NCBI GenBank assembly: GCA_973895155.1
Contig: OZ316891.1
Span: 964,143-1,028,142 of the forward strand
Source: Marsupella aquatica
Lineage: Eukaryota; Plantae; Marchantiophyta
DNA length: 64,000 bases
Reading direction: 5' to 3'
Both the position numbers and the translations under genes were made by a program. Positions 14,859 through 39,764 of this stretch are shown in pieces; within the stretch, counting starts at the first letter, position 1, and each line of letters starts with the position of its first letter. The notes under the pieces are model-generated. The model worked only from the letters and a program-made list of their open reading frames with translations. It ran no database searches and was not told where the DNA came from.

Positions 14859-16045
14859 TCAGTCAAAGATTCCTACCAGTGAACGTTTGAAATCAGTAAT
14901 CGTGGCTCCGCAGACAGGGCAAGTATTATTGTCAGCATTTGTTCTATGTTTCTCCAAGCAGGAAAAACAAAAGTGCATTTGTAGACACGGGAAACAGACG
15001 GTATCTTTGCGTCTTTCCATACATATCGGGCAGACGGTCTTCTCTTTTTCTTGCTCGAGATCTTTTAAGCTTTTTTCCAGAGAAGCTTGAAGACGATTCT
15101 GTTCCGCTTCCCTGGAAACGATCTTCTCTTCCAGACCAATGGTTTTCTTTACCGCCTCGGTTACATCCTCTAGCAAGATTTGCCTGACTGTCTCAAAGGC
15201 GCACTTAGCTTGTTCCAAGTCTCTGGCGTGCGTCTACTCAGATTTGCTGACATTTTCCAATTCCGCGCGCATGACACTGAGATCGCGTTCCGTCTTCGCA
15301 TTCGGACATTCTATTTCAAAACGGGCCTTTCTCGAACATGATATCACTTCCGTGCTCCATTTTTCCCGAACTCGATGATTGGTTCAATTCAACCTGTGCT
15401 GCAAGCAATTCGTCTTTAACGGAAACTAATTCGTTTTCCACTTTGACCAGTGTAGTAACACTAGCAGCCTGCGCGACCTGCATAGCAACCCGTGTAGCAT
15501 CGAGCTCACTTTGCAACGAATGTACAATTTCAACTCCCCTTGTGTAGTTTCTCCAGTATATCTGCGTTTAGTGCTACGTACTGTTCTTTCTTGGAAGTTT
15601 GAATCGAAGACTCTCCATATCTTTTCTGAACTCGTTGAGGTTGATTCCGCTTGCATTTGCATTTTGACCCTGGCCCCTCCTCATGTCTAACACAAGACGG
15701 GTCTGGCAGTGAAATCACCACACTCCTTATTTCTTTAGTCCCAGGTGGGCCAGTAGTATTCGTACCGTTTCCCGCATCAGCCTGAGCTGCGTTGGTCAGC
15801 TCAGGTCCAACCTGGGCTGTACCTATCCTGCGCCTTGCTGCGGGTGGGTCAATCTTGTTCTCCACAAGTGAGGTATCCGTCGTCTCGCCTTCTGTTTTCC
15901 GTTTCTTGACCGCTTTCAGTACTTTCACCGCCTTGGCAGCCATTTCGGTCGTCACCTCGTCAGCCCACTTGCGCATCGACAATGGTAGCCCACTGAATTC
16001 AAAGTCCACGGGAGTCAATGCTGTAATTTTCTTGTTCACAATCAT
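14859..16045 (-). pseudogene. Coiled-coil + C-terminal C3HC4 RING (zf-C3HC4_3 type) E3-ligase gene, disrupted
   Basis: RING reads CPICMERRKDTVCFPCLQMHFCFSCLEKHRTNADNNTCPVC. The frame is broken by +1 in the G-run near 15537 (KG-VEIVHSLQSELD), a second shift near 15375 and an in-frame TAG near 15235. Confidence 0.85.
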
Positions 16046-17574: not shown

Positions 17575-19032
17575 ACAAGCCAATGTATGTGCATTGCACA
17601 AAAGATGTCAAGGTGATAAAAGATGTCAAGAAGAGAAAAAATGTCAAGTGATTAAAGATGTCAAGGAGAAAAAAAATGGCACGGTGAAAAAAGATGTTGA
17701 GATGAGAAAAGGAATTGAGATGAGAAAAAGATGTCGAGGTGATAAAAGAAGTCAAGGAGAGAAAAAATGTGAAGGCAAAAAAAGATGTGAAGGTGAGAAA
17801 AAAGTAGAGGTGAGAAAAAGATGTCGAGGTGATAAAAGAAGTCAAAGAGAGAAAAAGATGTCAAGGAGAGAAAAGATGTCGAGGTGAGCAAAAAATGTCG
17901 AGGCGATAAAAGAAGTCAAAGAGAGAAAAAGATGTCGAGGTGAGAAAATTTGGGGGAAAAACATGACTTGTCCAGGTTCAGAGAAAAGATGTTGAGGAGA
18001 GAAATAGATGTTGAGATGAGAACAAAATATTGAGGAGAGAAAATATGTCAAGGTGAACAAAAGATGTTGAAGATAGCAAAATAAGTTGAGGAGAAAAACG
18101 TTTGCAAAGGAGAGAAAAAGATGTTGAGTGAAAAAAGATGTAAAGTAGAGCAAAACATTTTGAGGTGAGAAAATAAACTTGAGGTGGAGAGGTGCTCATT
18201 GTCCCGTGAGGCAGGAGTTGGGTAGACGACAGGAGGCCGGGTTGCCCATGCAATGTGTTACCTTGGCCACTAAAAGATATAGATTTGGTTGGATTTTCAT
18301 GAATTCTTGTGTGGTGTTCTCTCTATTTGTTGCATGATTGTGTTCTTCCCCTAACATGAATGTTTAGAGAAACTTACATGGTTTGGTCGACCCTATGAGT
18401 GAGAGAGTGGTGATAGCACTTTGCCAAAGGCCAGGAGGAGTGGGAACAAGATAGTCCATGGGACTTGATCAAAAGCAAAGTACATGTATAGTCGGTAGAC
18501 TTGATCAAAAAATACATTTCCGGGAACAGAAATGAAACTACTCATCCTTAGTAAGAAATTAATCCATATAACGTCCCCCCATGTCCCTCTCATACGATAC
18601 AAAAAAAATAGTGGAAACCAAACTATATTTATTGTGTTAATCATTTGATAAATAGGTGACACAAAGAACTGGGCTCCCAACTGGAGAAGGGATTAGGGCA
18701 AAAGCAAGACAAATATTGTGGAAAAGAATGTTGGGAGCTTGATCTTATCGGCCTTCATTAAAGATGCATTCTTGGAAAAGTATTTTTTAAAGAATGTTCA
18801 CTTGGAGGTTTAGATAGAATGACAAAATTTGGGACATTGATCAAAAAATGAAGAAAAAAATTTGCATTTGATTTGATTTTGGAAAAAGATGTTGTTGGGG
18901 AGAGCAAGGATGTGGGAGGGTGAGAGGGAGACTTTGCACCGTCAAGGTGTGATCACAATTTACTATTGGGAGGGGAGCATTCAAAATTTTCCGCTCCCCT
19001 TTTTTCCTATTTCTTCACTCCTTTGCCACTCC
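17575..19032 (-). mobile_element. Non-autonomous Helitron-like repeat arm (copy 1) with a 19-bp tandem array at ~17598-18190
   Basis: Degenerate Helitron-type 3' end on the minus strand near 17575-17600, followed by an array of GAGAAAAAGATGTCGAGGT units. The part at 18655-19030 is a direct copy of 37025-37495. Confidence 0.55.
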
Positions 19033-22000
19033 TTAGCCCCATGCCCGTGCGTTGCACGAAAGACTTCGAGTGAGGGCAAGATGTCGAGGAGAGGGCAAGA
19101 TGTCGAGGTGAGGGTAAGATTTGGAGGTGAGGGCAAGATGTCAAGGTGAGGGCAAGATGTCGAGCACTAGAAGAAACCGGCCCGTTTTGAGACCTGGAGA
19201 TGTGTGACTTGTCCAAGACCTTCATGAAATAGCGACTCCAAGGTTGTTGGTGTCATGTTAGTCACACCTTCTTGACTGAGTTTTGGTGAAGTTTTGCCAA
19301 GTCATGTTTACAACTTTTAGGTAAGTTGCAACTATAACTTAGTTAAGGCAATTAGGGTGAAGTTATACAAGTGACTCTACATTAGAGTACAACTTATGAG
19401 ACCACTACATTTGAACCCTTAAACCTTAAAGTATGGGATCCGCGACCATATACATATGATTTTGGATACACCATATGTCATTCCACATCAATTTAATAAT
19501 AGTTTAGTCATACCATTCTAAACCATAATTACTCCTGACCCCATTTAGACACAATGAAGCCTCAGCCCCGTTCAAACCAAGAGCAGGCCGGCTTTGTCAA
19601 ACCTTGTTATTAACCTAACTTAATGCTTATTGTAGTCAATCTCTAATTTTTCTCCATCTTTACCACTTGTCCTACCCTCTATACCAGCCATAGAACATTG
19701 GATGTCCAACTACTATATTTTTGCATGCTATATATATATATATATGCATATGAAGAAGGCTTGATCTTAGATAGCATTAGTTTTCTTTTAGGCTCTCATT
19801 TGTGCTCTTAATTAATGAGCATGCAACAAGGCTATTGTAAGGTTAATCCTAGCCCTGTGCGTTCATTTAATCTTTGCTCATATTGTGTTGTGTCAAATTT
19901 GCTTTAGGGTTTACAGCTCATGTCAACGCAAAGTGGTCGAGTGTCACTGGGTTCAGTTCTCTCACTAAGTGTTAAGGTATGCATTGTGCGTTGCCTTTCG
20001 ATATGAGTTTAGGGTGCGCGGGTTTTTCAACAGGAAACACACCAGCAGAGTGCAAATGGGAGTTGAAGGTGCGCGGGAACTCGGAGGTTTTTGTCAAGGA
20101 AAAACTTGGATGTCCATTGTGCTTACCAACAACCATCGTTTAGGGCGAGGAGCTTTATGGACTTCACTCCCGCTTGTCGTGCTTGAGTGTACATCTGCCC
20201 TCTATACTTTTGGGAGCTTTGGACTAGAGCAGATGATCGGAAGCCTCGGACGAGAGACACAGACTCCAATATCCAGCTCGTAGATCAATCCATGATTGAT
20301 TTTGTCAGGTGTGCGACCTTCAAGCTCTTCTCCATTGTGCGCTTCCAGTTGAATGCTGCAAGGTCTGAATACTATCGGGAGCTCGCATTTGGGCCAAGGT
20401 TTAGGTATTTTGTCATTGGAGGACTGAGCTGTGGGTTTAGGCCGACTTACTATGAGCTTATGTTGTTGCAGCTGTGACCAATAACTGAGGAGCTGCGACC
20501 AAGAGCTTATTTTGTTGCAGCACTGCCGTGGACAAGGGGTTGTGGAGGATCGGGGAGCTGCGACGTAGAACTGAGGAGCTGCGAAAAAGTGGGGAGTGAT
20601 CTTGAAGGCCAACTATCTAGCGTGAGGTGGATCATCGTGGTTGCAACAGCGATCGGGCCCTTTTTTGCATTGGCATTGTCAGTAAGACAATCTGTGGACG
20701 CGCAAAAGAGTCGCAAGGAGTTGTTCTTGTGGGCAGAGATTGGAGTTCACATTTGGTAAGTCCACCTCAATAATGACATACATTGTAGGTGGAGGCAATG
20801 TTATGGCCTCTTGTTGTCTTTAAACTCATTCTCCACTCACAAGAGAATGAGGATTGATTGTGTCCTGAGAAGCTTAACAATTTATGTTGTTGACATCGTC
20901 CACATTGAGTGACAGTGAGCTCAAGTCAGTGAGTGACCGATCAAATGGGACATTTGTGCTCTTCATTACATGCTCGGGCAAGAGTGATTGATGTACTAAT
21001 CGCAAGCGCTCCCAAGTATCCATTTGTCGTTAAGGCTTGAAGCTTCACCGGGAGCTGCGACCGTTAGTGGGGAGGAGTTGGAGGTTGTGTTGCGCTCGTA
21101 CACAACCTCCAAGGTACAAGGCAGGAGTTGTGCAATTTAAGGTGAGAGTCAATAGCTTTTGGGATTCACCATCTTTCATCGTTGTCATCGCTGCTCTCGT
21201 CTATCGCTACGGCCGATTGCTGCTCTGCGTTTTTGCCATGGGTTGCCAGTCTGCCAGATGCTGAGTGAGATAGAGGCTACAACCTGGGTGCGCGGAGGTC
21301 CTCACTAATCCCATGGTTTACAGTTTGCAAAATGTGACAGCCCCAGTGCACAGTGAGGTATAGGGTGTGTGAGGTATAGGGTGTTCTTACTCGTGCTACA
21401 GTCACTTTGACTTGCTGAGTTCCAGCAAATTGAGTTTTAGGTGCGGTCAATGAGAGTTGAGCTGTTTGAGCTACGGTCACTGAGAGTTTAGAGTTTGAGC
21501 TGCGGTCACTGAATGCTGGCATTGAGGTGCACGCCCTTCACATTGATCAGTGAAGGCTACGGCCGGGGTGATTATGACAGTGATTCCAATGCAAACCGTC
21601 CAGGTAAGATTTATGTGACATTGTGTACAATGAAAGTGGCCCTGCTTATTGACTGCTTAATGTTTGTGTTGCAACTGGCAGCAGATGCATGGAGTGCAGC
21701 GAAGGGAGGCGCTATTCATGTGAGCTGACAGGGGAGCTGGACTTGTGAGCCGTGGTTGCAGCTACGTCTTGGAGCTACGACCTATGAGTTGCGGCTAGAG
21801 CTACAACTTGACCTGAAGGTGACGCATGAAGAGTAATTTTGCAATCCATGAATGTTTGTACTCAATGTTATAGATGCATAGGGTGGGTGTTGCATTTTGT
21901 TACTGTAAAATGTCCGTGATGTCGTGAGATGTTCTGTTCCTTGGATTGAGACAATTCTTAGATCTCTGCATCAGCGATTATTGTATGTCATGTCTCACCT

Positions 22001-24361
22001 CAGATCATGAACGTGATTGGTTGGAGACTATATTAATTGGGGAGGAGCTCCAATCCGTTGTCATTGCTTCTCAGTGGAGTGTTGTTTTAGTAAGCTACAG
22101 GGGGCAACAGAGCGCAAGTTGCTGCTTGCAAGTTCACGCCTGCTACCTGCTACCTACGACTTCCGCCTGAAAGGTATGACATTCACATATGCGCATTTCT
22201 GGTCTCCAGTTGATCAATGTACTTATTCCCGCTGCCTTGAAATGGACCTCAAATTTCCATGCTCCAATACGCTACTGTGATTGAAGCCTATCACGATGCA
22301 AAAACAGAGGAGAGGCAGAATCAGAGCCCGGACACCAACGTGTACAGATATCACGAAGCTAAAATAGAGGAGAGGAAGAATCAGTGCTCGGCTCGGACAC
22401 CAAAGTGTACAGACATCATGAAGTAACTACAAGCTAGTAGATAGGTCAAATGCTCCCAAATCGAGTCAGAGGAAAGTTACTAAGACTACCTTCACAACTC
22501 TCAAGTCTGGAAAGTAAAAATCAGCCTGAGACACGTAGCAAGAACTGTTGTCTGCTAGGAACTGTTGTCTGCTTTCTTGGGGATCGTCATGTGTATGTAA
22601 TTGCATACACATTCTACCTGAGGGGAGTATCATGACTGTACACCTCAGGTAGAACCGAGTACTATCTATCGCATGATATAATTCCTCTACAATTTTGTAT
22701 TAATGTTGCCTAAGTGCTTTGTTGTATTGTTTTGGTTGTAATGACGTCACTTGCATTTCATAGTCAGTCTTAGTTGGTTGGCTTGGTACTCATTTGCTTT
22801 TCACTCCCTCTGGCTAGTGAATTTGTCTATTGTTGCTGAGTTTTTTGCGTAAGAACTACATGTTCTTCACTTTCTTGATCGTACTCTCTCCCCTATGGAA
22901 GACTATTGGCTTGGGCTGCCAGCCTTCTCTCTATTTCAATTTGTTGTCCCTATGGTCAAACACTACTTGGTTAGTGGTTTTGCTCTATTTTTGTCTGTTT
23001 TGCCTTCAAGTAGGACATGGATGAATTGAGCTTGGAGGCAACAAAATGGCAAGGCCGAATCTGAATGGTTCCAGAAGTATGTGTGCTGCATTTTGATTTG
23101 GAGAACCAATTGTAGAGTTGACTCTTTTTGAATGTTGTAGTCTATTTTGCCTTGAACTGGGCCATGGATGAATTGAGCTTGGAGGCAGTTTTTTTCATTC
23201 CCATCTTCCTGAAGCCTTGTCTGCTTTCTGCCACCCCCTTGTGGTGGGGACTTTTCTTGAAAGATCCTTATTGTGAACAGAGTTTGTACTTTGATTATGA
23301 AGTTTGACTGAGTTTCTGTTTACTGAAAGAATGTGACTATGTAAGAGTTTCGTTTGGCAGTGGATTGGTTGAAGCACTTCCTGCTAGTGTGATGTCCACA
23401 GCTCTTCAACCAGCTTTTGTATTCCTTGTCTTTCACCACTAGCTTACGGTGACATCAATTCAGCTAAGACCATAGAAGGTTCCAAGGCATCTAACTTGTA
23501 AAATCGCATTCTGTTACATCAAGGACTAAGGTGTTGGGTGCCAAAGGAGACAGCACATCAAACGTGCTGAAAAGACTTCAGGACTGGGTTCAACAAGGTA
23601 GTGAAGGTGCTTAGAGCCATAGTAAGTATGCATTCTGTATCCTTTCTCTGTTGATGTGAGCTTGTGCATAGTAGGAGTTGTAGTTGGCAAGAGTTCCATA
23701 AGGCCAAATATGAATAGTTCTAGAAGTATGTGTATGAACCAAGTGTAGAGTTGACTCTTTCTAAATATTGTAGTCTCTTTTGCCTTCAACTGGGCCATCG
23801 AGTACTGCTAGTGTATTCACCCCAATGAGCAATGCTTCTCCATTCAATCAGGTGAATGTACAGTTTGGTAGGGCCAATGCCAGGTGATCATGTACTTGCT
23901 CTATAAAATTCTGAAGATATAAGCATTTTCTGTTAGACCAGGAAACTTGGGAGTTTCTAAGTGTCACCTGCATCTGAGGGGCTACACCGGGGGCATCAGT
24001 GGAGGTTCACTTGCACAACACGACAGCCAGTGAATTTTCTCTCTGCTGCAACCTGCAAGGTGAGACTTTTGGTCCTTCTGGATGAAAAAACAGGATTTTA
24101 ATATGATTGATATACATGTCCGTCGAGAACATGGGTTTATCACCAAGCTCTTTGTCTTAGGAAACTCATAAACTCAGAATCAAATATGTACTATACACGT
24201 TTCATGCTATGTGTATACTATGACCTGTAGTTGGAACCAAGACAGTGAGTGGGAACTGATTAGTTTAGGTTGGTTGTTGTTGGTGAGGCAAGTCGACCTC
24301 CTGCTCGCCTTGCTCATCAAAGGACGTGAATAGAGGACGTCACAACGAAAGCAACACTTAA

Positions 24362-24811
24362 ATGGTGAGGACCCGCAACGCTGAACATGTGCGGCTTGCA
24401 CGCAAGGCAGAGATGTTGCGCCTTGAGTATGTCAGACTTGGGATCCTTCCAGCCCAGTTTGCATGGTACTTTGAGTACCCTGTTGTTTCCAGGAACAACT
24501 ACAGCCGGCCTCTACCTGCTTCAGTACCCTTCCCGACATCCTTGGTATTTGTGTCTCTTGTACATGACCCGCCACAAATTAGGTGCCAAGGGTGTGTGCA
24601 CAGTTGCCAATATGACTGTCCTGCCTGTAGGGCTTCTGGCCCAGAATTGGATGACCGTTCTCTTGGATGCCGATTTTTGCACAGAGCACAATGTATCATC
24701 TGGAACCACTCGCCATCCTGCAGTGTGCCTGGTGATGTCACTTGTCCTGCCCTCCCAGACCCCACCACTGGTGGCTTTGGTGTCTACACATGTTTGGATC
24801 ACATGCTCTAG
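24362..24811 (+). CDS. Cys/His-rich hypothetical protein, CACTA cargo (149 aa)
   Basis: ATG-initiated ORF with CQGCVHSCQYDCPAC...C...H..QC..WNH...C.....C...C..H, possibly zinc-binding. No family recognised. Confidence 0.5.
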   Translation: MVRTRNAEHVRLARKAEMLRLEYVRLGILPAQFAWYFEYPVVSRNNYSRPLPASVPFPTSLVFVSLVHDPPQIRCQGCVHSCQYDCPACRASGPELDDRSLGCRFLHRAQCIIWNHSPSCSVPGDVTCPALPDPTTGGFGVYTCLDHML

Positions 24812-25425
24812 AGGACCACTTGTCACACCACATGCATAGACCAGATACCATTGACCTATAGCTTAACACTCTACCTTCAACACAGAGGATATTTACTTAA
24901 AATTTTGATGTATGAGCAATTTTGGGTCCAGGGTTTAGGGTCAACAGTACATAACTTATCCTAGTATGCCTGCACTAAGCAAAATATCCTAATTTAAGAG
25001 GCTACCAAACTCGCTTAAAAGTCTCTATTGAAAGACTACTTTAATATTGCTTTAACCTGGTGAACATTGCAACGTTGAATGAATTAATGGGCCATGTGAT
25101 AATATGCAAAATGTGATTTATGCCTCACTTATTTGTCTCAACCACTATCATAACCTATTTAGGATGTATAAATTTCAACCCTTATGACACTGCTTCATAC
25201 CAATCCTCTTCGAAGAATGCCTGTTTTACATGTCACGACTATTGTATGTGATTCAAATGCATGAAATGTTGTTGCAGATCTCCTTTGGTGAATCATAGCC
25301 ACAATTAAAATTGAGGTGTTGGTGAAGAAATTGTATTAGGGGATCAGTTTTGTGTGTGGGCTCAACATACCCAAAGTATGTGTGCTCTGCATCCTTGTGT
25401 GGCCATTCCAATTCATTGCAGTAGC

Positions 25426-25572
25426 AAATGCCTAAATTGTACCTTAAATGCTAAATATATTTTACTTTCTATGCAGTCTGCTAAATTGTAGAGTCTATCT
25501 AAATGCCTTTGTACCTTAAATGCTAAATATATTTTACTTTCTGTGTAGTCTGCTAAATTGTAGAGTCTATCT
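25426..25572 (+). repeat. ~72-bp tandem duplication just upstream of the PHD ORF
   Basis: TGTACCTTAAATGCTAAATATATTTTACTTTCT.TG.AGTCTGCTAAATTGTAGAGTCTATCT occurs twice. Confidence 0.9.
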
Positions 25573-25583
25573 CATGCGCAGGC

Positions 25584-26264
25584 ATGGCACGGCCTAAAAT
25601 TCAAGCCAAAAAGCGTGTGACAGAGGTGAGAAACACAGGTGTACTTGGGGCAGATGCTACTAACTTCTCTGCAAGTCAGATTTTCCAGAAGGCAGCTCAT
25701 TGTTGTGCCATTTGTGATGATGGTGGGGGCCTGGTCATTTGTGAGGGCCCTTGCATGAGGCATTTCCACCTCAACCCGGAGTCTGACCTTGCTGCAGAAA
25801 ACAACTGTCCAAGGGTGGGCCTCCCGTCAACACACCAGGGAGACTGGATGTGCACTGATTGTTTGGAGAAGCAGGCTAAGTGTGCACAGTGTGGGAAGTT
25901 GGGGTCCTATGAGGGCTTTGTTGATGCTGCAGCAAATGTTAGGAAATGTCCAGACCGTTTTTGTGTGAGATTTTTCTGTTTTGAGTGTTTGCCTGCTCAT
26001 GCCAAAGCTTGCCCACTTCATAGGTGCAAGGCATGTGGTGAGCATGATGATGACTACTGGACTGACATAGTCCACTGTGCTAGGTGTCCCACTATGTGGC
26101 ACTATCATTGCCTGAAAGATCATCAAGCAGAGGGTTATGCTTGTGACAGAGAAATCTATGATCACTCTGCACATGGTGTTGATCGATGGATATTTTATTG
26201 TCATCGCCATGCCATTGATCCTACCTCGCGCACTCCTGTGAGAGATCACATATCTTGGCTGTGA
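25584..26264 (+). CDS. Stand-alone composite PHD-finger protein of EDM2/NSD type, CACTA cargo (226 aa)
   Basis: Motifs CAICDDGGGLVICEGPCMRHFH...WMCTDC, CAQCGKLGS, CPLHRCKAC, CARCPTMWHYHCL and IFYCHRHAIDPTSRTPVRDHI follow, in order, the PHD cluster of plant EDM2 as recalled. Intact and intronless. Confidence 0.85.
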   Translation: MARPKIQAKKRVTEVRNTGVLGADATNFSASQIFQKAAHCCAICDDGGGLVICEGPCMRHFHLNPESDLAAENNCPRVGLPSTHQGDWMCTDCLEKQAKCAQCGKLGSYEGFVDAAANVRKCPDRFCVRFFCFECLPAHAKACPLHRCKACGEHDDDYWTDIVHCARCPTMWHYHCLKDHQAEGYACDREIYDHSAHGVDRWIFYCHRHAIDPTSRTPVRDHISWL

Positions 26265-26856
26265 AGCTGAACATTGTACATGCACAGTGCACCTGATGTG
26301 GATGTACTATTTTTTGAGATTGCAGAGATTCCAATTTTGAAAAGGAGTTGGGTAGGCGAGTTTATATAGGCAGCACTTATCTTGTGCTCTGGCGTCAGTG
26401 GCTGGGTACATGCCTATACAAACTTATCCTTACAAGCCTTCTTGGAAGTATTTAGGCTGAGTGGTCATTTTCATAAACACTTTCATCAGACTGCTAAATT
26501 AAAACAGGACTTCTAAGTTGTAAGCGTATAAATTATCAGGCATGCAATTAATCAAATTGCCCTATAAGTTTGTCATTGAATGTATCCTCCTTTACAACAA
26601 AATATGTATGTGCCATGACAAGTTGGTTGCACTTCATTTCACCACGGATATGGATTTTGTAGTATATATTCAAACAATGTCCTGCATCCGTGCAGGTGCC
26701 TAGTACGTATTGTTCACATATCCCTTGTACCTATCAAAATCGGACCTGAGCACCAGTGGGCCAGATCAACTCAAAAAGCATGAATTTTGTTGTCCTTGTA
26801 TTGTCAGGTGAACCCATTCTTCCAAAATTCACTGTCATCACGTAGGGTGTGTGTAC

Positions 26857-27729
26857 ATGGAGCCTGGGAAACATAGAAAGTGTGACCACCCAGCAGTGTT
26901 TACAGGGGTCAGAGCGATTTTGGTCCATGGCCAGCATGGGTTGACCAAAGTGCATTGGCCAACTGTACAGAAACGATTCTCTGAGCTCCATGGCACTGTA
27001 GTTCAGGACATCACTCCAGAGACTACACATGTTGTTGCAGGGACATGGCTATCAGTGATAAACAAGTGGTCATGGTCCTACATGAATTCTGCAATTACTA
27101 AGCAAGGCCTAAAAGTAGTTGAGGCCTCTTGGATCACAGATTCCATAGCACATAAGATTGTACAGGATACTGAGCAATATGAGTTGTGGGAGGATGAAGA
27201 AGCTACTGCATCAGCTTGGGCTGAACAAGAAGTCTGGGAAGCAAAGGCACGGCTTGCTGATCTCCAATATGGACCTGTACTCAACAAAGGACAGAGCTCT
27301 ACAAGGCTGAAGAGTATGTTGGCTGAGGAGACGAAGCAACCAACCCCCATTCCGAAAGGGCTGAGCATGGTATTTGTGGAGGCGGGAATTGGAGAGGTTA
27401 AGTGCAAAGTGTACAAGTCCACAGTGCTTGACCTAGGTGGGACAGTGGAGGAGAATATAACAGAGGACACCACTCATGTCATTACTAAGTCATATCCCAA
27501 AGCCTGCCGCAAATTTGGGAAGGGAGACATTCGCTTTTATGTCATGTCCCATAATGTGTTTGTGGTTTCATATGCTTGGCTTGTGGAATCAGTAGCAGCT
27601 GGGAAGCGTCAAAACCCAATGGACTATGATCTTTTTGAGGCCTGGCCACGGAAGGGTCAGGATCCTTACAGAGAGGACTATGAGACAACAAGTGAGGAAT
27701 GGGTCATTAGCGATTCTGAATCAGAGTGA
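26857..27729 (+). CDS. Tandem BRCT-domain protein, CACTA cargo (~290 aa)
   Basis: Two repeats: HGTVVQDITPETTHVV...VVEASWITDSI...Y and GGTVEENITEDTTHVI...VVSYAWLVESV...DY. These carry the BRCT signature GG, THV and W..S. Acidic tail. Confidence 0.85.
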   Translation: MEPGKHRKCDHPAVFTGVRAILVHGQHGLTKVHWPTVQKRFSELHGTVVQDITPETTHVVAGTWLSVINKWSWSYMNSAITKQGLKVVEASWITDSIAHKIVQDTEQYELWEDEEATASAWAEQEVWEAKARLADLQYGPVLNKGQSSTRLKSMLAEETKQPTPIPKGLSMVFVEAGIGEVKCKVYKSTVLDLGGTVEENITEDTTHVITKSYPKACRKFGKGDIRFYVMSHNVFVVSYAWLVESVAAGKRQNPMDYDLFEAWPRKGQDPYREDYETTSEEWVISDSESE

Positions 27730-28160
27730 GGAGTAGTAGCATCAGTTTGGACACAAGTTTTTTTGTATAAATCAGATCATTGAAATAAATGTGATCTTTG
27801 AACTAATGTACCTTGTTATGGTTGGTGGCAGTTGGGCTTATTTTACTGTTGGCGGATTGTTGTTTCCTGCTGCCTGGGGGTGTCACTGTAAACGTACATG
27901 CAAAGGCGGTACATTTGAGGACAGCGGAGGAGGTGGTGACACCCTCCAACATTTAGGAATTTTGTGTCATTCACTTGACAATAGGTACACTACTTGCGAA
28001 CCTGTTTTTTTCTTTTGGGGTGGTTTAGGGTGTGAGAATTTAGTACACGTTATGTTAACTCTTTTGGCAGATACAGTCAGGGATATATGGAACACAAATA
28101 CCACCATTAGGCATCCTTGTTCACTGCTGTCCATGACTGCAGAGCTCCCAGCCTGTTACA

Positions 28161-31100
28161 ATGCACCCTGGTCACCACCCTCCCCAGACCCAGCCCAGGG
28201 CACAGGCACTGCCTTTGCATCATCCCACAAGGATATCACGCCATGATAATAAGCTTTGGCAGCGTGAAAGGTTACGAACCAGACTTTCAGGAGCCAGTAG
28301 GATGAGATGTCCTTGTGCAATCTGCCAAGGATCCCGTACCAGGGGTCTGAATGAGGTTTGGCGGCATATTGCGGTTCATGGAAGAGATCCACGACATCGA
28401 GTTTGGAATGATCCTGCAGAGGAAGATTCTTCCGACGAGGAGTGGAGGTTAGAATTTGATGCTGCCAATGCTGCAAGACGGGCAAGTGAGGTTCTGCCTG
28501 GTGCATTTGAAAATGTTGTAGCTGGTCTCTGTGGGTTGTTAGCTCTCCAACGGGATGGTGCTCAGGCAACACCACGTGACAAAGGAATTCATGTGGAAGA
28601 GATGGTGAGAGACATCTTCCAAGACTTGGATGCATTTCATGATGGGCTGGACAACGAAGAGGATACAGCTGCAGATGCAAGTGTGCCCCCTGTCGAAGAG
28701 CCTCTTGATGAGTTTGAGATAGGGCAGGAAACCCCTGGGCATGATGGGATGTTTGGCTCTCCCCTGCAAATACAGGAAGGCAGGAAGTTTTTGTACCCCG
28801 GTAGCAAATGTTCTAAACTGGGATTTGTCATCATGTTCCTGAACATTTGCGGCAACCACAATGTCCCCAACGTTTTGGTTTCTGAGTTGTTGGCATTCTT
28901 GCGAACAACTGTGCTACCAGATGGTAATATTTTGCCCAAGAACATGTACGAGGCAAAAAGATGCATATCTAATCTTGGATTGAACTATGATTCGATCCAT
29001 GCCTGTCCTGATGGGCATGTTCTTTTCAGAAAGGAGTATAAAGAATCGTTGACATGCCCTAAGTGTGGGAAGCACAGGTATCGGAACTCAAGAAAGTCTA
29101 TGGTTCCCGCCAAGGTACTTCGTCATTTTCCACACATTCCCAGACTTCAGCGGATGTTCAGAAGCCGTGCCATCTCGGAGATGATGACTTGGGCAACTGA
29201 CAAGAAAAGTGATGATGGGCTACAACGACATGTTGCAGATTCAAGGCAATGGAAACTCATAGATGAGATGTATCCCGAATTTGCTGCTGAGCTGAGGAAT
29301 GTCAGACTTGGGCTGTCATTGGATGGGGTAAACCCATTTGGAGACAAGAACAACAAATTTTCGTGCTGGCCTGTAACTATTTTGAATTATAACCTTCCTC
29401 CTTGGATGACTACAAAGCGATTTTTTGTTCTGATGGTCCTAGTGATACCAGGGCCAGACAGTGTTGTATCTGCCAACATAGATGTGTTTCTGGCTCCCCT
29501 AGTGGAGGAATTGAGAAAGCTTTGGGAGGAAGGAGTTCTCACATATGATGTCCTACAGAGGCTTGGGAGGTTAAACCCATTCATCCTTAGAGCCATTGTC
29601 ATTCTGACTATAGCTACTACCCAGCCCATGGGATGATATCAGGCCAAACAACAAAAGGATATTGTGCTTGTACTATCTGTGGGCGTAATGTCACCAGTGA
29701 GTACTCCAGAGCCCTGCAAAAAGTGATATACATGGGCCATCGTCGTTTTCTGAAGGCAGATCACCCTTACAAAGAAAGACAGGCACTGATTGCACACTTT
29801 GGCAATGAGATTGAGCAACGTGGACCCCCGGCACAAGTGACCAAAGAGGAGATCAGGCAGTGGGGAGCACTGAGGGATGACTATATCAAACGAGGGGGCA
29901 GGGAAGATGGAGTGAGTGATCCAATAAAGCGATATGGTGTAAAAAGACTGAGCATATTGGACTTGGAGCTCAAGTACTGGAGGGTAAGCCTCTTGGAGTT
30001 GATGTTAATTGGGATACATGTTTTGGTTCAGAGCATGTGCATTCATTTCGAAGAGAGAGACTAAACTTGAGGCATTTCCTGACGCTTTTGCATTGCAACG
30101 ATGCAGGAGTTTGAGCCAAGCAAACATAACATTGATGTTATGCACATTGAAAAGAATATTTGTGAGAGTCTACTCAGATTCTTGTGTGGAGAGAAAGACA
30201 CTGGTTCAGTGAGATTGGATCTTGAACAGAGGGGAATGAAACCCCATCTTTGGTTGAGGCCACATGCCCACAGAGCTGATGTGCTCTTGAAGTACCAAGC
30301 GCCCTATGTTCTGACAGACACAGAGTGGGAACTATTTGTGCAGAGGTTGAGTTCTTTGAAGGTTCCTTCAAACTATGGCAGTGCTTTCAAGAAGCATATC
30401 ATGACTAGAAAGCTTGGTAGTATGAAAAGCCATGACTACCATATGTTGATGCAACAGGTGTTGCCTTTATGTCTGACGGGCCTGTTGCAGAAGCCTGTTC
30501 GTACTGTGATCATGCGACTCAGTGATGTGTTTCGTCGTATTTGTGTGAAGGTTTGGGATGAAACACACTTCCCACAACTGACAGAAGATGTCGCTCAGGT
30601 GCTGTGTGACCTGGAGATTTATTTTCCTCCCGCATTTTTTGATGTCATGACCCACCTACTTGTCCATGTTGTGGAAGAGCTACACCAATTTGGGCCTGTG
30701 AGTGCTCGTTGGTTGTACCCTTTGGAACGGTACATGAAGCTACTCAAAGGTCACGTGAGAACATATTACAAACCTGAAGCAAGCATGGCTAAAGGTTACA
30801 TCAAGGATGAGACTCTGGGATTTCTGACCGAATACATAGCACAATATGAGCATGTGAAGACCAGGGTGTGGAATTCTGATGAGGAGGAAGGGGTGATAGG
30901 TGAAGTACTGGAAGGGGCTGCAACCACAAAGAACCTGACCATATCTATGAGAGACTTGGCACATGACTTTGTATTGCACAACACTGTGGTGATGGAACCC
31001 TGGATACAGTGAGTGCATACATGTGCTATAATCCAGTTCATGAGCTTAAATGTTGTGTTCGTGTGGTTTTCTCCTTCAGCCTGTTCATGTTTACCCAAGC

Positions 31101-31891
31101 TAATGCTGTGTGGTTGTTCGTTTAGGGAGTATGAGTCATTGAAGGCGGCCCATCCCACTGCAGGAACAACTTTTCCAGGTTTCATGGAGTGGATCAGAGT
31201 GGCAATTAGAGAGCATCACGAGACCCACCCAGACATGGATGCAGATGTTTACCTACTGTCTAATGCCCCTAGCCTGAAAGTGAAGACTTACAAACGGATG
31301 AGAGCATATGGGAATCACTTCCGAGTGAAGGATGGTGACAGTGCCTATAGGGTGACGAATGACTGCGGGCTCATCACTGTATTTGAGCAACAGAGCCACA
31401 ATCACGACAGGGCCTGGATGGAGATGGGATATGTGGGAGAATTAGTTGACATATGGGCTCTGGACTATGGGGCGGTGTCCAGTCCTGTGATTCTTATGAA
31501 AGGTTCATGGGTGCGGCAGGATTGGCTTGGTAACAGGGCTACCATGAAGAGAGACAACGACGGTTTCTTGCTGGCCAATTTCAGAGGGAAATTGCCCGAA
31601 TGGTCTGAGCCATTTGTGTTTCCTAGTCAGGTGGAGCAAGCTTTCTTCCTGGATGTGGAAGACTCCCCAGGTTGGCGTGTAGTGTGTCATAAACAGGCCA
31701 GGCAACGTCGGATGGAAGGATCAAACCTTGAGTTTCATTTACACTCTCATAGTGCCTTTGATCGTCGGCGTTCAGACCAAGTGCCTGTAGTTCATGATAG
31801 CCGGGACTTCATTCCTGTGACAAGGGTAGATGCATTTGCTGAAGGAGGCGAATTCAGAGATGCAGATGCCAACAGTGTGCCTGTGCCATGA
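28161..31891 (+). pseudogene. tnpD: CACTA TnpD transposase (Transposase_21, DUF4218, DUF4216), frameshifted near 29612; introns ~29984-30107 and 31009-31125
   Basis: Motifs MRCPCAIC, IHACPDGHVLFRKEY, RNVRLGLSLDGVNPFG, YNLPPW, IDVMHIEKNICES, MKSHDYH, PPAFFDVMTHLLVH, RWLYPLERYM, PEASMAKGY and EPFVFPSQVEQAFF. The TI-DYPA motif is split by a frameshift. Confidence 0.93.
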
Positions 31892-32046
31892 GTAATGTGA
31901 ATTGTTTGCATGGACATTAGTGAGGGGAAGGATGTGTAATAAAGTAATTCTGAAGCAACACAGATGTATGGATGGATGCCTGGTGATTGTGGTTGCATTG
32001 TGTTATACGGGGTGACCATAGATGACATGTTTTTGTGGTCCAGTAG

Positions 32047-35000
32047 GATGGAATAGAGTGACACGGAGATGTGTGAGTATGAAAGGAAAGCTATGGAACA
32101 ACGAGCATACATGAAAGCCAAAATCGCAGAACTGGATCTGGAAAAGGATGTGGCTGAATTGTAAGGGAACGATTCTCAACTACACCCCTCCGCTGAGTTT
32201 GTGTGACATGAATAGTTCAATGTGGCACTGAAATTGTGACTATATTCTCATATTGGAATGTCGCAGAGCCACAGCATTTTCAAAGAAACAAAAGGAGTAC
32301 GCAAGAAGGGTGACCAGCACTATCTCTGGGCCTGTGCGTCGGAGTGACAGGTTGAGCAAGAAGGTCGTACCTACAATGGCAGAATGTGGAGATGACATTG
32401 ATGCTGCACAGGTGGGTGCAGACACTAGACAAGAAGATGCAGATGATGAGTATTTTCCAGAGGAAATGGATGAGGATGGGGGTTATGAAGATGAATACAT
32501 TGCAGAGCAGCCCCAAAAGAAACAGGTAAGTAGTTTTCCCAACAAGGTTTTGAGTTACTCTTGTTTAGAGGTTTCATATGTTCAGTACTACACATATGTA
32601 CCTTGCTTAGTTCCTGACATTGTAGTTGGTGATGTGATGCAGCGTCCTGCCAGTTCTGTTTTGCCTTTGAAGCCTGTGCATGCACCATACCAGCAGGGGG
32701 GCTGACCTCTGATCAAGGTTGGCGAGGTGGTAGTAGTGGTAGATCCCAGGCTGGTGCCCAATACTATGGCAGGGGGCAAGCTCTAGGTTATGCCCGTGGT
32801 AGAGGCAGAGCAGGTCCAAACCCACAATCTCGTGGGTATGGACGTCCACCTCAACCATGGGGATGTGAGTATATATCTATATGCCAGTTCTTTGTGAAGG
32901 CATGGCACTCCTGAATTTCAGACTGCATATCAATTTTTGACATTGTTTGGGATGTATTGGATTCAGACAACATGAAATTCTGTCCACCTGCCATTGCATG
33001 CAGATTCTGCCCAACCTGATTGGGCAAATGCTAATAATGATCAGTTCCAATGTCCACAAGGATAGACATGGGTTGAACCAGGTTGGGAGGATGGTGGTGG
33101 GTCGTGGAATGAACAAGGTTGGGAAGGTGGTGAAGGTAATTGGCAGGGATATCAAAATTCAGTACCTACAAACGCTGGAAGAGGGGCAGGTAATGTCTGA
33201 TCTTGTCAGCAATGGAAGAACTCATTATATGTGAGTCCATTCACGTGGGGGGGACTCTGCACATGTATAATGATAGAAAATGTATGTGTGCAGGTTGGAC
33301 AGTCGAACCATCGACTCAAGTATTCACTAATGCCCCTATGCAGATGCAGCACGGAAGGGGGACAGGTATGTCGGTGAATGTTCAGTTGTTTTCCTACAGT
33401 TTGTACTTAGTTTTCAGTACATATGTTTGCACACACATACCTAGAAAGTGACATCATCCGGCCCCTGTACTAGGCTGGACAGGTGGTCCAGGGTCGCAAC
33501 AATTTCAGAGTGCAGTCCCTGCACAGGCATCTACAGGCAGAGCTACAGGTATGTATGTTTGAAGAATTTTTCTTGAAGTGAAGCATTGAATGTTGCCGTC
33601 ATCCATTCTGCTATATGTAGTTGTCAAGCATGAATGGCATTGTATTTTCCCAGGTGGCTTCAGAACCCCAGGTAGGGTGAATGAAGGGGTGGCCAATACA
33701 ACGCCCAGTACTACCGAGAGCAGTGCACGAGGGGAGGTGACAAAGAAAGGGAACGTAAAGTTGAATGAGAGACAATGGGTGGATGCTGAGTGTCCTTGCA
33801 AGAACCGATGGCATGCTGATTTGAAAGCTGAAGTATTGCGTTGGTTAGATGTGAGTGTTATTAATTTTAAAAAACAGCATCCAAAAGATTGGAAGACTGT
33901 ATGTGAAAATGTTGCTGCCAAATGGAATTATATGGGCAGTGATGATGGCGTGGACATAGGTTGCCTAGAGAGTACAGCAGGTAAAATCATCAAGCAAGAG
34001 AGGTGGAGAATGCATAAGGCTTGGAAGGAAGGTGGGGAGAAGCCAGATATGCCTCCACCAGCCAGTTGTGATGATAAAGTGTGGGCAAGGTTAGTAGCTT
34101 ATTTTGTAACAGATGCTTCAAAAAAGAAGAGTTCACAGATGACCGAGGCCAGGTTGAGTGTTCAGAACCCTAATCTGACAGGAAGGACCGGCACTGCACC
34201 GACAGCTAAACGTTTGGTAAGAATGAATGGCCCAGCTATGTAATTTATGCTACACTATGTACTGTTTTTTAGTGTAAACCCATACATGTAAACTTTGTTT
34301 TTTAGTGTACGTTCCCTGAATATTGATCGATAACTTGTGTTTGCCATGCATGTGCAGAAAGCCCAATTGGGGCAAAGCCCTTCAAAAGAAGAGTTGAGGG
34401 CTGAAATTGTGAACACCCGGGCTCAAGAGGGTGCATCTGAATCCTCCAAGCATGTAAGTTATATGAGTTCTGATTGGTAATTGAATGACCTGCGTTGAAT
34501 TTCAGGTGTACACTGTGTGCATATATTGCCCAACATTTCATATGGAGTGATTGAACCTATACCCCTGTGTCATGTAGGGAGGTGGATCTCACTTACAGAG
34601 ATAAGTGGTCATTTGAAGGCTGTCAAAACATGTCTTCCAGAGATCAATGAACGTTTGAATTCATTGACTGACTTGTTCCATGTGAACTTCAAGACATTAA
34701 TGGAAGCTGTTGTGTCGGTGAGAGATAAAATTGATTCCAATTCTGCAGGAGTTCCACCATCACCACTTGAGGTGGCAAAGTCGATGCACTCTTCTGGCAT
34801 GCCAACGACATGTAGGCTTGAAGGTAAGGCCTTTACAACTGTGTGGGATATGATTATTAAATGTATAGTTTGAATTGACATTGTTTGTTGAATGTGTTAT
34901 TTTCAGTAACATATATTGTGGTTGTTGTGTCCATAGAGAATAAGACAGGTGCTACAGAGAAGAAGTATGAGAACCTGGCAAATACTCGCTGTAATTTAGA

Positions 35001-35733
35001 GGCAACAAAGTTGCAGTCTGTACAAGCAACTTGTTTGACAGAGGGCAGTCAACCATGTTTGGATGAGGATGACATTGGCAAGGGAGTGGATGATATCAAT
35101 GTTGGGGCAAATGAGGATATCAGCAAGCATGACAATGATACCATTGAGCCAGATTCATGCTATGTAGATCTTGACTCCATTGCAGAGATAAATGATTTGC
35201 AGAATGTATCATTCTCAATGACAGGTGTGCCTCTTGTTGAGATAAATCCAACCAAAAAGTTAGTTGGTATGACACTCCCAGGTGATGAACCTGCTACTGT
35301 GACAGTCCTAACAGAGGAACCTATTGAGCCTAGCTTCACTACTATGAAGAGAGGAAGCATGCGCACATGAAGCAAGTCTGCTGGTGGGAGCAGAGCCACG
35401 TCAAAGGTTTCATACAAACCTCCAAGAACAGTGATGGCAGAAAGATCTAAGGTGGAAGTGGGGAAAGCACCTAATGCTGAGGGACAAAGTGGCTTGTTAG
35501 CTGTTGATGAGAGTGGAACACGAGTAGGATTTGGCAGAGTGCAAGTTGGTTCCACAACGTTCCATGGCAAGAGGATTCCCCCAGGTTATTCAGTAGTGTT
35601 AGTCACATTACTAGTGAAACCTAAAGCTGTCCTTCCCATTCCAAACACAAATGATGATCCTCCTCAAAAGACACTTGGAGATGCTGCAGGTTCTTTGGTA
35701 TTATGGCCAAGCAAGTTCATAGAGGATCCATAA
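32047..35733 (+). pseudogene. tnpA: CACTA TnpA-like multi-exon gene with in-frame stops
   Basis: N-terminal CEYERKAMEQRAYMKAKIAELDL, a Transposase_24-like segment (PPASCDDKVWARLVAYF...KKSSQMTEAR...GRTG) and a C-terminal FHGKRIPPGYSVVLV...LPIPN...TLGDAAGSLVLWP. A TGA at 35368-35370 splits one frame. Exon boundaries are only approximate. Confidence 0.75.
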
Positions 35734-38700
35734 CAATGTCATGCCATTATTTGTTTGTAGTGTGAGTCATGTTATGTAGATTTTAGATGTCAAGAAGCAG
35801 TACAAGAATCATGTCCTCTTGGAGATTCATAGTATCATGCATGTGCTTTCAGTTATCTCATCCTACAGTCATCAATTATGAGTTCCTGTTTTGTCTGAAT
35901 TACATTGATCACATTGTAAACTATTCCATTGGAATTCAAATGATCTTCATTTTTTAGCAAGATTGTGATTGTGTTTAATTCTTATGAATGTTTTATGTAG
36001 GATCTGCTTATATGATGCTTTGTTTCATGTGGATGTCATTCATGCTATGTTCATTTCTTGTATTCAATGTGTTATATTTCTAAAGTTAGAACATCAGGTT
36101 TCTATGTATTGTAATGTCGAGTGCTCTCTCTCCTTATGAACTGTCCCTCTGTGTTCATTAGTCATGGTTATAACTTGCATGTGAACCTTATTAGTTATAA
36201 ACATGAGTATATAGAGTCCCAAATGGTTCTGTTGTGTGACGCGGGCCAGGGTCTCCATTGGTCTCTCTTGTGACACTAAATAGTCACACGCTAGTCGTTG
36301 TTGAATGCGGGTAAGTCATGTATGTGACTTACGATGTGACTCGCTGAAGTCATATTGCAGTCACGTCGAAACAAGGCTAGACTCCACAATAAAGTCACAG
36401 ATCAGTCACAAATGGGTATCAAGCAAGTTGCAAAGCCCAGTATCAATAGTGACTTCCATTTTTTGGTCTCAACTTTTGCAACTCCAAGGGTCACAGCGTG
36501 GGTCAAGTCACGTTGAGTCACAATGAAGTCACATGAGCCAAAATGAGTCACATATTGCGGTCTCAGTTCACCTCGGATTCTTCTAGTGGAGGTAAGGGCA
36601 AGATATCAAGGAGAGGGCAAGATGTCGAGGTGAGGGTAAGATTTTGAGGCAATGGTAAGATTTTGAGGCGAGACAAACATGGTTGTGCATTGCAAACATG
36701 TAATTCAGGCAAACATGTAATTTTAGTAAGGTAAAGAACTACTCATTAAAAGCTGGGGTTTTTAGGTGGATCAAACTCAAATATTGGATTTTCCATAATC
36801 CTTTCTTGCCCATTTCATGTGAAAAGTGTTGTCAATGCGGAGACCTTGTTCAATATAGCACAATCATGAAATTATGTAATCAAGTAATGTAATTCAAGTG
36901 AACGCAAAAATATGGGATAAGGCGCAAATGGGTAATGAGAGTACATGGGCAAGAGTTAGGTAAGAAATCCTTATTGTTAATGATACAAAAGATGGAACAA
37001 AAGACCGGAAAAAAGATGCAAATGGGGGCAAAGAGCTGGTCTCCAGACTTGGGAAAGGATTAGGGCAAAAGAAAGACTAATAGAGATGAGGGGGCATGTC
37101 AAGCAATACATGTCTTGTGGAGAAAAGATGTTGGGAGCTTGATATTCTTGGTCTTCATTAAAAATGCATTTTTTGAAAAGATTTTCAAAGAGAATGTTGG
37201 AGATATAGATGGAATAACAAATTTGGGACCGATCTTCTATACAACAAAAAACAAAAATATAATCAAAACATGTAAAAAATAGTGGACTTTGCTTTTGCAT
37301 TTTTAATTTATTTTGGAAGTAGATGTTGTTTTGTTGTGAAAACTATATTGTTGGGGAGAGCAAGGATGTGGGAGGGTGAGAGCTAGTGCAAGAGAGATGA
37401 TGGCCCCAGGTGCTTTGATACTATTGGGAGGGGAATATTTTATTTTTTTCTCTCCCATTTTTTCCCATTTTTACACTCCTATGCAACACCATTACTCCCT
37501 TTTTTTTACATTGGCACCATTAAATAAACAGAAAAAATGCACAAAACATGATGTCGGACCTATCGAGAAGGGTGACCACCCTTCTCATTTTTCATGATCA
37601 ATTTTTTTTCTAAGGCATGTAAAACCCGATACAAATTGTGCATTCCAGAAAAATAGTCATCCATGATTAGGAGGAATGCAAAGATCGATACGGGTATCGA
37701 CCTTTGCACTTGTAAATTCTTTGGTTATCAGAAATTTACAGAAATGGTGAAACTGTGCATAACCGCGCAGTAGGCTCTAACTATGGTTAAGTTTAACTAG
37801 GGTTAAGCTAGAAATTAACCATAGCTACCTCCAAAAGTATAAATATGACTGCCCGCTCATGGAAAGAAGTTTCATTTTTTCAAGTCCTCTTTCACAATCA
37901 AGCTCTCACCCAACCCAAAGAAAACCTCCTCTCCATACAGATGCGCATTCTGGTCTTAAGAGTAAGCTTCCACTTTCCAAAGCAAACTGTGATACTCGTA
38001 TCATAATCAGCTTTGTAGAAAGCAACTTGCGATACTTGTATCATAAGTTGCATTCAAACCTAAGTTTCAAACCCTCAACAATACAGGTATCGCTTGGTGC
38101 ATTGAGCCAACTCAATTAGTCTTATGGTGCAGGAGTGAAAATACTTCAATCATGGTTTAGATTCTGTCTCTTGAAGATTGTAAAGCCGTTTGCTGCTCAT
38201 CTCGCAGTTCTTCATATTATGTTGGGGCCCTTATTTTCTCTTGGGTAGCTGTTGGTCGGATCCGAAAGCCAATAGCGATACTTGTATCACTCTTTGGATT
38301 GAGTAGTGTAGATTTAGGACGGACTGCACTGCAAAGATCATTGGACTGGGTCACTCGTGACCTCTAAGGTGGACCTGACAAAACCCCACCTAAACAAACA
38401 CAAATACTCTGTTCCGTTCGCTTACAAGCAAAAATGTGCCCAACAAAAGTTGGGCTCGACAATCTTTTGAGTGCCCAAAGAGTGACGGCCTCGTGTCTAT
38501 ATATATCCTCTCCCATACAATGTTTCCCATTTTTTCTTGTCTTTGTGAGAGCTCGTGTGAGAGATTTTGGAAAGGAGCATTGTTTGGCTAGAGAGGAGAC
38601 TGAGGACGTGGTGTGGCCTGGCTGATTCAAAAAGAAATAGTTTTACCCTGTAGGCAGCACCAGAACAAGTTCTAGAGGCGGCGCAAATGAAGACAGTGCG

Positions 38701-39764
38701 AACCATGGTTTGTACTGTGAAAAGGATTTGGTCTGCTTCTTGAGTCATTTCCCTTAGTTGGTTTTGCACAAATAGTTTTTGAGGCATTCCGTGTGGCTTG
38801 TGAAAGACATATTAGATAGTCGTATTGCTTCGAGTAGGAGTCTTTGTGTTTTGTCATCTAAAGAGGAATCGGCGGATGGATTGGAAAGTGTTGGCCCAAT
38901 CCGAAAGCAAATTGCGGTGCTTGTATCTCTCTTGGGATTGAGTCATGTTGTTCTCAGAATTAAGCTGAATTCAGTAATCCCAGTTAAAACATCATAAATT
39001 AACTAGAGACTCCATTAGAGCCTGCAATCTTGTATCTGTAGCCCGATCGTGGATTCATGGATCCTCTTGGGGGTTTGTAAGGTGTTGGCTTGTTAAGAAA
39101 GCAAAGCTTGTTCTCTCGTTCTTCTCTCTTTGCTCAATGGCAACATTCCCAAAGAGCGGAGGAAGACTTGCAAGTCTGAAGGACTTAGAATTCATCGCTG
39201 TCGATTTGGCCATTCCCACAATAACAATCATGACATAGTACTTGCTCAAATTGATGCAGCCAAAGGGCGACGAAGGAGAGGACAGTGAGTTGATCGTAGT
39301 CACCACCGGCAGAGAAGGAGTTGCAGCTTGTCATGTCTGTCAATCTATCTTTCCTTTTGTTCCAATTGTTTTGTAAGTTGCTCTTTTGCATTGATGCGGG
39401 CATTGGCGATTCTTCTGCGATTTTGAGTTTTGAGAAGCAGATTAAGTGATCAAATTGATAGTTTACATTGATTGCCAGTATCGTCGGCCTTTCTTCATTT
39501 TTTGAGCTTCCTGAGCTTCAGATTTGACTCACCGGCACTACATGTCATTGTGCAGATGGACAACGATAGCCTTGACCCTTGCTGGATTAGAACCACATGA
39601 GAATCGATAGCAGCTCCCAACAGACGCCCCTGCTCAAGGTTCTTGGACCCAGTAGAAAGCAACTTGGATGCCGTATTCAGAAGAAAGCAAAGCACGATAC
39701 TTGTATCGCTCGTGGGATTGATCAAGCAGTGTAGATCTCAAATTTGATCTGCCAAAGGAAAACA

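Follow-up and report, generated by a model that had tools for sequence, protein, structure and literature searches.

Introduction

Among the closest described counterparts of the protein studied here are VANC of the VANDAL Mutator elements and TnpA of maize Spm, transposon-encoded accessory proteins opposing silencing, as we propose for the present protein. TnpA and MURA have been reported as transposon counter-silencing factors (PMC10398659), and VANC has been traced to a captured host chromatin factor, MAIN (PMC13547354); further background is found in PMC3632883 and PMC10241880. In the literature consulted, VANC, TnpA, and MURA are linked to loss of DNA methylation, and VANC and TnpA are described as sequence-specific.

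Two groups of host proteins are also relevant. EDM2 combines an atypical multi-PHD block with acidic regions, an N-terminal RFD, and a methyltransferase-like ELP domain (PMC7529245), and its PHD fingers are reported to bind H3K9me2 and other marks (PMC7472560, citing Lei 2014). H3 N-terminal mimicry proteins (H3TMs), human proteins characterized in vitro, carry the M-Z-R-X-K motif right after the initiator Met in a disordered N-terminus; this start is given for 48 of 20,996 human proteins, while H3 itself has ARTK at positions 1–4 and ARKS at 7–10 (PMC8166343).

In this study, we analyzed a window of 64,000 nucleotides of liverwort (Marsupella aquatica) DNA, for which a preliminary description had proposed that a CACTA element carries a captured EDM2-type histone reader. 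The PHD gene is a real, conserved, and apparently undescribed accessory gene of a CACTA family. Unlike VANC and TnpA, with which no homology was found, its product is predicted to act through histone tails. Like the H3TMs, it would present M-Z-R-X-K right after the initiator Met in a disordered N-terminus; its H3-like stretch, however, also matches at positions 7 and 9, is attached to a reader, and is transposon-encoded. In the literature covered, which excludes most subscription papers, supplements, and repeat databases, where such elements may be annotated, no CACTA-encoded PHD protein or transposon-encoded histone mimic was found. The available text of the VANC paper (PMC13547354) makes no mention of PHD, EDM2, or BRCT, and that of a gene-capture review (PMC13317346) makes no mention of PHD or histone.

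Results

The PHD gene lies inside a complete CACTA element

The first unit in Table 1 is a complete CACTA (En/Spm) element. Its CACTA...TAGTG terminal inverted repeats match over 11 bp at both ends, CACTAGAAG occurs once per strand of the window, at the two ends of the element (19165; ending 36588), and the same 3-bp target site duplication is present at both flanks. These matching ends and the duplication bear out the earlier placement of the PHD ORF within a CACTA element. Additionally, GTCAC/GTGAC subterminal motifs number 14 in the right 400 bp and 3 in the left 300 bp, as raw counts without a shuffle control. The genes all lie on the plus strand in the order Cys-rich ORF, PHD ORF, twin-BRCT ORF, TnpD, and TnpA, and TnpD matches Transposase_21 with an E value of 2e-44.

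The twin-BRCT ORF is intact, its best PDB match being weak (BRCA1 BRCT, E 0.007), and represents a second chromatin or repair module on the same element. The Cys-rich ORF starts with MVRTR, contains an ARK motif, and, in three of the four runs, falls within the element's deepest contig bin; it gave no Pfam match better than E 0.097 and no usable ESM Atlas match. A splice fusion of the PHD or BRCT ORF to TnpD was considered and rejected, as inspection by eye found no convincing in-frame join, and the conserved stops likewise argue against it.

The insertion site of the element is a 19-bp repeat array. Arrays of this repeat, in inverted orientation and with 74-nt inverted arms, lie at 17580–19164, 36589–37404, and 48685–49460. 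They may mark the ends of a single, very large element enclosing a methylase unit, with the CACTA element inserted into the left array. This second transposon-like unit (39735–47075) contains a DUF7869 ORF on the minus strand (43420–45111, E 1e-48), an adjoining 649-aa ORF, and, on the plus strand at 40822–43119, a 765-aa ORF with a C-terminal N6/N4 DNA methyltransferase domain (E 3e-7, above the cut-off), a candidate transposon-borne adenine or cytosine-N4 methylase. Elsewhere in the window, several Dynamin_N gene copies (1004–2267, 12169–12600, 55916–58845) and coiled-coil RING ORFs (14859–15233, 52331–53401) are present, and the first 15 kb include a duplication of roughly 10.3–10.9 kb.

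Table 1. Features of the CACTA element and of its PHD gene (positions in the window)
Feature	Position	Strand	Evidence
CACTA (En/Spm) element, 17.4 kb	19165..36588	+	terminal repeats, GAG target duplication
Left terminal inverted repeat CACTAGAAGAA	19165..19175	+	target duplication GAG 19162-19164 precedes
Cys-rich ORF, 149 aa	24362..24811	+	inside CACTA element
Splice-acceptor-like sites ending 25548 and 25581	25530..25581	+	sequence only
Stand-alone EDM2-type composite PHD ORF, 226 aa	25584..26264	+	Pfam, profile match, predicted structure
H3-like motif, residues 2-10 (mature A1 R2 P3 K4 I5 Q6 A7 K8 K9)	25587..25613	+	[AS]RxKxx[AS] in 14/17 members
PHD1 (C41 C44 C53 C57 H62 C75 C90 C93), long EDM2-type H-to-C loop	25704..25862	+	8/8 ligands invariant in 14/14
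PHD2, shortened; C132 replaces EDM2/NSD histidine ligand	25881..26021	+	C132 in 14/14; alignment to EDM2
PHD3 (C148 to H209) and EDM2-type C-terminal tail, end DHISWL	26025..26261	+	alignment
Twin-BRCT ORF, first ATG 26857, second accessory gene	26812..27729	+	Pfam BRCT E 5e-12, two stretches
TnpD-type transposase; introns 29984-30106, 31009-31125; frameshift near 29615	28137..31891	+	Transposase_21, DUF4218, DUF4216
TnpA-type multi-exon gene, start not mapped; frameshift near 32695, stop at 35368	32232..35733	+	Transposase_24 E 1.5e-4, below cut-off
Right terminal inverted repeat	36578..36588	-	then GAG 36589-36591

The predicted product is a stand-alone EDM2-type PHD block

The PHD ORF is one open frame from ATG to TGA (681 bp), and its product ends in YCHRHAIDPTSRTPVRDHISWL. 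Judged from its sequence, it is a three-finger EDM2-type PHD block standing alone. Pfam places PHD-1st_NSD (E 5e-5), PHD_NSD (4e-3), and PHDvar_NSD (7e-5) in this order, with all three matches below the respective curated cut-offs. A profile built from six family members and run against 2702 candidates retrieved five longer proteins. The three best of these are EDM2 or EDM2-like proteins, with E values from 1e-23, for a named EDM2, to 1e-15, and relatedness to EDM2 is thereby upheld. The alignment runs through the C-terminal TP.R[DN]HI motif, the characteristic EDM2 end noted earlier. The shared features are the three-finger order, the long PHD1 loop, and the YC..H...TP.R[DN]HI tail; the identity of the ORF to EDM2 is approximately 30%.

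Compared with EDM2, the family lacks the RFD, the acidic stretch, and the methyltransferase-like (ELP) domain; no RFD or ELP profile match was found in its members, in agreement with the stand-alone character first described. Moreover, PHD2 in all 14 aligned members carries Cys at the EDM2/NSD His position and misses about 20 linker residues. The family also differs from EDM2 in its basic H3-like N-terminus and its separate clade, and the window copy in its location inside a transposon. The NSD1–3 PHD clusters, like our protein, match the Pfam NSD-type models; in contrast, the PHD protein has no SET or PWWP domain and NSD proteins lack the EDM2-type loop and tail, and the family profile scores higher on pineapple EDM2 (102 bits) than on human NSD2 (45 bits).

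An AlphaFold model of the 226-aa protein, computed with 14 sequences, reached a mean pLDDT of 72 and a pTM of 0.67, with pLDDT below 50 at residues 1–26 as a proxy for disorder. Its structural matches are multi-PHD modules, the best TM being to NSD PHD5-C5HCH (0.55–0.60 on the target), and the ESM Atlas matches are exclusively NSD-type PHD clusters (top score 0.92, Streptophyta). PDB searches returned no solved structure of the EDM2 PHD block. PHD1 aligns to PHD1 of AIRE (E 0.003), including the strand and the Trp loop, which in AIRE-type PHD1 have a role in H3 binding.

The gene had been described as free of introns. This holds for the coding part, and the relatives have their starts and stops at matching places; however, the acceptor-like sites just upstream of the ATG make an intron in the 5′-UTR likely.

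The window protein belongs to a conserved family

Sequence searches yielded 15 same-type relatives at E ≤ 1e-17 among 16 matches, and further members came from one metagenome locus and from the best 150 of 682 profile matches. Full-length members have approximately 210–245 aa (one was called at 304 with extensions), most end in DHISW[LIF], and pairwise identity ranges from 35% to 99% with a median of 44%. Conservation reaches 305 of 312 positions for the 24 inferred zinc ligands, compared with 901 of 2132 for the other positions. Many copies are dead, which is usual for transposon genes: 8 of 16 relatives have lost a ligand, are truncated, or show a broken frame, and the metagenome locus (L001) is a decayed 1.5-kb piece without transposase. 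No genomic locus of a relative was found in viral contigs or prokaryote genomes.

Two known classes of transposon cargo were considered and rejected. A VANC-type protein does not fit, as 16 members show only PHD-type Pfam matches and the host element is CACTA, not Mutator. Nor does a fragment captured by a Pack-CACTA element, which would be a recent, near-identical, and unselected piece of host sequence in a non-autonomous element, as the present element encodes both transposase genes and the ORF is diverged from EDM2 to the level given above and under selection.

Lesions in the transposase genes are largely private to the window copy

In the preliminary description, the PHD ORF was said to stay open while TnpD and TnpA are broken. 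The two genes are indeed damaged, TnpD by one frameshift and TnpA by one frameshift and one stop; however, two further TnpD breaks turned out to be GT-AG introns. The true lesions of the window copy are the frameshift near 29615, the frameshift in a G run near 32695, and the stop at 35368. We compared these sites with contigs from 4 (X1, X2, X3, X5) of 12 listed runs. The 29615 lesion is absent from the other copies at 1821/1821 depth in X1, 14390/14390 in X3, 41/41 in X5, and 20115/30245 in X2, and the 35368 stop is absent at approximately 100% in all four runs, while the picture at 32695 is more mixed (17% in X1, 15% in X2, 54% in X3, and 29% in X5). The three lesions are therefore largely private to the window copy, a young element in decay that belongs to a family most of which looks intact at these sites. 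Silent changes make up 3 of the 13 top-listed ones in the coding parts of BRCT, TnpD, and TnpA, which is the neutral share. With three lesions in an estimated 7,250 coding bases, 0.28 would be expected in 681 bp, and the probability of none is 0.75. Since the lesions are largely private and an intact ORF of this size is expected by chance, the argument from an open ORF beside broken transposases fails.

The PHD ORF is multicopy and evolves under purifying selection

In X1, near-identical ORF contigs (1 difference in 158 bp; 2 in 177 bp) have depths of 1539 and 1813, matching those of TnpD contigs (1554 and 1782). A second ORF type (33 differences over 234 bp) lies at a depth of 1978, close to the 1912 of a patchily matching TnpD contig, and diverged ORF pieces have depths of 13–34. 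The contigs thus contain at least two deep PHD-ORF subfamilies. The second ORF type is placed with the second TnpD from their equal depth, no contig spanning both; the CACTA surroundings are seen directly only for the window copy. If the lowest depths represent single copies, each subfamily would comprise on the order of a hundred copies. The left interior of the element (19760–21952) has a depth of 133–154 in X1, and the stretch 19407–23048 has about one-tenth of the contig depth of the remainder, so most copies differ there.

The 138 variant rows were represented by 40, of which 39 lie in the PHD ORF: 17 silent, 22 replacement, and no stop. The silent share of 17/39 compares with 21–28% expected (P 0.001–0.028), and pN/pS is 0.36–0.53, an estimate resting on 39 of about 137 PHD-ORF sites. 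No indel row reached a 3% share in the PHD ORF, although a few low-depth pieces carry gaps; across the whole 18.2 kb, 153 indel rows reached a 10% share (12 of them displayed). As estimated from these contig variants, purifying selection on the PHD ORF is moderate. Collectively, the gene is neither single-copy nor evolving neutrally, two of the three outcomes that would have spoken against the original proposal (the third, a lack of relation to EDM2/NSD PHDs, does not apply either), and we are highly confident that it is a selected part of the element family.

The family is of EDM2 type and its nearest host relatives are liverwort paralogues

In a 150-row tree, the PHD family forms one clade of 18 rows (support 96) adjoining one long-branch row and six proteins, all of which come from liverworts (Riccia, Marchantia, and Calypogeia); in a 35-row tree, the family clade has a support of 100/99. 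These paralogues, including Riccia sorocarpa KAL3685775.1, Calypogeia fissa CAM6087769.1, and Marchantia polymorpha MPTK1_1g03210 and MPTK1_4g03050, give the best single-block scores outside the family (129–136 bits for three) among the best 150 of 682 profile matches. Like family members, they end shortly after the PHD block, none of the six has a methyltransferase-like match, and three otherwise rare motifs are common to both groups: RCPxxW[HC] (family 17/17, paralogues 6/6, other proteins 9/127), [VI]xCxRC (17/17, 6/6, and 4/127), and an aromatic-x-H before the last YC..H (14/17, 5/6, and 3/127). In contrast to the family, 5 of the 6 have an RFD-like region, the PHD2 histidine and long linker are kept, and none starts with M-Z-R-X-K.

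The PHD family is a separate clade in all trees and is never nested in the canonical EDM2 clade. In the 35-row IQ-TREE analysis with algal-type outgroups, it falls outside all EDM2 proteins, on unstarred branches, and an AU test did not reject a grouping of family and paralogues (p 0.355); without outgroups, canonical EDM2 separates from family plus paralogues at only 60/68. Small trees with six host rows failed to place the family. The proposed capture stands as to type but probably shifts as to donor: the shared motifs, though not the trees, point to paralogues lacking the methyltransferase-like domain rather than canonical EDM2. The origin is EDM2-type and old, and likely lies in the liverwort paralogue lineage.

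The N-terminus resembles the H3 tail

After Met removal, the mature protein would start with A-R-P-K-I-Q-A-K-K. The motif A-R-x-K-x-x-A/S, often with K9, matches H3 residues 1, 2, 4, 7, and 9 and is located 32–45 residues before the first cysteine. In shuffles, [AS]RxKxx[AS], observed in 14 of the 17 members, was expected in 0.11 and the version with K/R9, observed in 11, in 0.02. The motif lies 2–3 residues further in for 5 of the 17 members and is absent from 3. It was found post hoc, and the members share ancestry. Among six later-found members with an N-terminus, three have the strict motif and five if Thr is allowed at position 1; three further later-found members without an N-terminus were dropped from this test.

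The window protein, starting MARPK, conforms to M-Z-R-X-K, as do 9 of 17 members (in 2 of the 9 at an internal Met preceded by an extension that was likely mis-called) and 2 of the 6 later-found ones. Within the window, the PHD ORF itself is the only one of 39 ATG ORFs with such a start. Among 142 non-family matches, three have it, all in one clade of short stand-alone EDM2-PHD proteins (P0058, P0064, P0065, P0072, and P0113; 3/5 start M-A-R-x-K), of which one member is named, from Eleusine coracana. Since this separate clade nests among long EDM2 proteins, its combination of reader and H3-like start suggests convergence.

Several observations bear on how the tail is read. Position 6 is Lys in 10 of 14 members, unlike H3, so a plain basic patch fits too, and the Marchantia host paralogue P0068 has a similar but internal basic motif. 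The classical NLS consensus pattern, as scored on the members, occurs in 4 of 17 versus 2.15 expected and, not being enriched, was rejected as an explanation of the tail. In the AlphaFold model, the tail is undocked from the PHD block. Furthermore, the acidic stretch preceding PHD1 in EDM2 is absent from the family (0–5 acidic residues per 20 versus 9–10), and H3 specificity may therefore differ from that of EDM2.

Discussion

Our leading interpretation, to which we give somewhat less than an even chance, is that this conserved accessory gene combines an EDM2-type triple PHD with an H3-like tail to act as a chromatin reader and histone mimic that helps to keep the element active in silenced chromatin. 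The PHD block would have been taken long ago from the EDM2 paralogue lineage seen in liverworts. The protein would be expressed from the element transcript, and PHD1 would bind H3 tails on element nucleosomes. The disordered A-R-x-K-x-x-A-x-K tail could then serve as a decoy or recruiter for host proteins that write, erase, or read H3K4/H3K9 marks, so that family copies would be less silenced and remain transcribable. A more far-reaching form, which we put forward as doubtful though worth stating, is that a plant CACTA lineage encodes a histone-level counter-silencing factor in which the captured EDM2-type reader and an H3(1–9) mimic dock on element nucleosomes and divert the host H3K4/H3K9 machinery, the same design having arisen a second time in the short stand-alone EDM2-PHD proteins of grasses.

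The PHD protein may instead assist transposition without affecting silencing, perhaps together with the twin-BRCT protein, by tethering the transposase complex to a chosen chromatin state or by recruiting repair factors at excision or insertion. Chromodomain-guided integration of retrotransposons offers an analogy. In its favor, TnpD is immediately preceded on its strand by two modules of chromatin or repair type, and the window copy is surrounded by a repeat array in DNA rich in transposons; however, neither module is seen fused to the transposase, one insertion site is uninformative on preference, and the conserved tail motif is left unexplained. We regard this role as unlikely, but as a serious competitor.

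The gene could also be functional for the element without any reading of histones, the tail being no more than a basic patch for nuclear import or DNA binding, and the fingers forming a protein-binding scaffold. The Lys-rich character of the motif (K6 in 10/14), its offset from the N-terminus in 5/17, the lost acidic stretch, and the His-to-Cys ligand swap are consistent with such a scaffold. The unenriched NLS pattern, the Ala/Ser kept at positions 1 and 7, and the strand and Trp loop retained in PHD1 argue against it, and we consider it improbable.

About equally improbable is a role like that of EDM2 in read-through, in which the protein would join the host ASI1–AIPP1 machinery and thereby keep the long, intron-rich transcript of the element from ending prematurely in heterochromatin. 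EDM2 is reported to act in this way in Arabidopsis (PMC7472560, PMC10852260), and the element genes span more than 10 kb with many introns; in contrast, all other EDM2 domains are absent from the PHD protein, PHD2 is remodeled, and its nearest relatives are EDM2 paralogues, not EDM2 proper. Finally, a captured host fragment amplified with the element and devoid of function is largely refuted and very improbable, since the decay of the window copy (3/13 silent changes) and the 8/16 damaged relatives are outweighed by ligands kept at 98% across 35–99% pairwise identity, conserved starts and stops, and an excess of silent changes.

If the reader-and-mimic interpretation is true, the host–transposon arms race would include a route distinct from the loss of DNA methylation, by way of a histone reader carried by a transposon and, even more distinctly, of a histone-tail mimic; histone mimicry is known mainly from viruses and host proteins. 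The PHD gene also represents a natural minimal version of the EDM2 PHD block. With 681 bp, no intron in the coding part, and its nearest host relatives in Marchantia, the proposed function is directly testable in a model plant.
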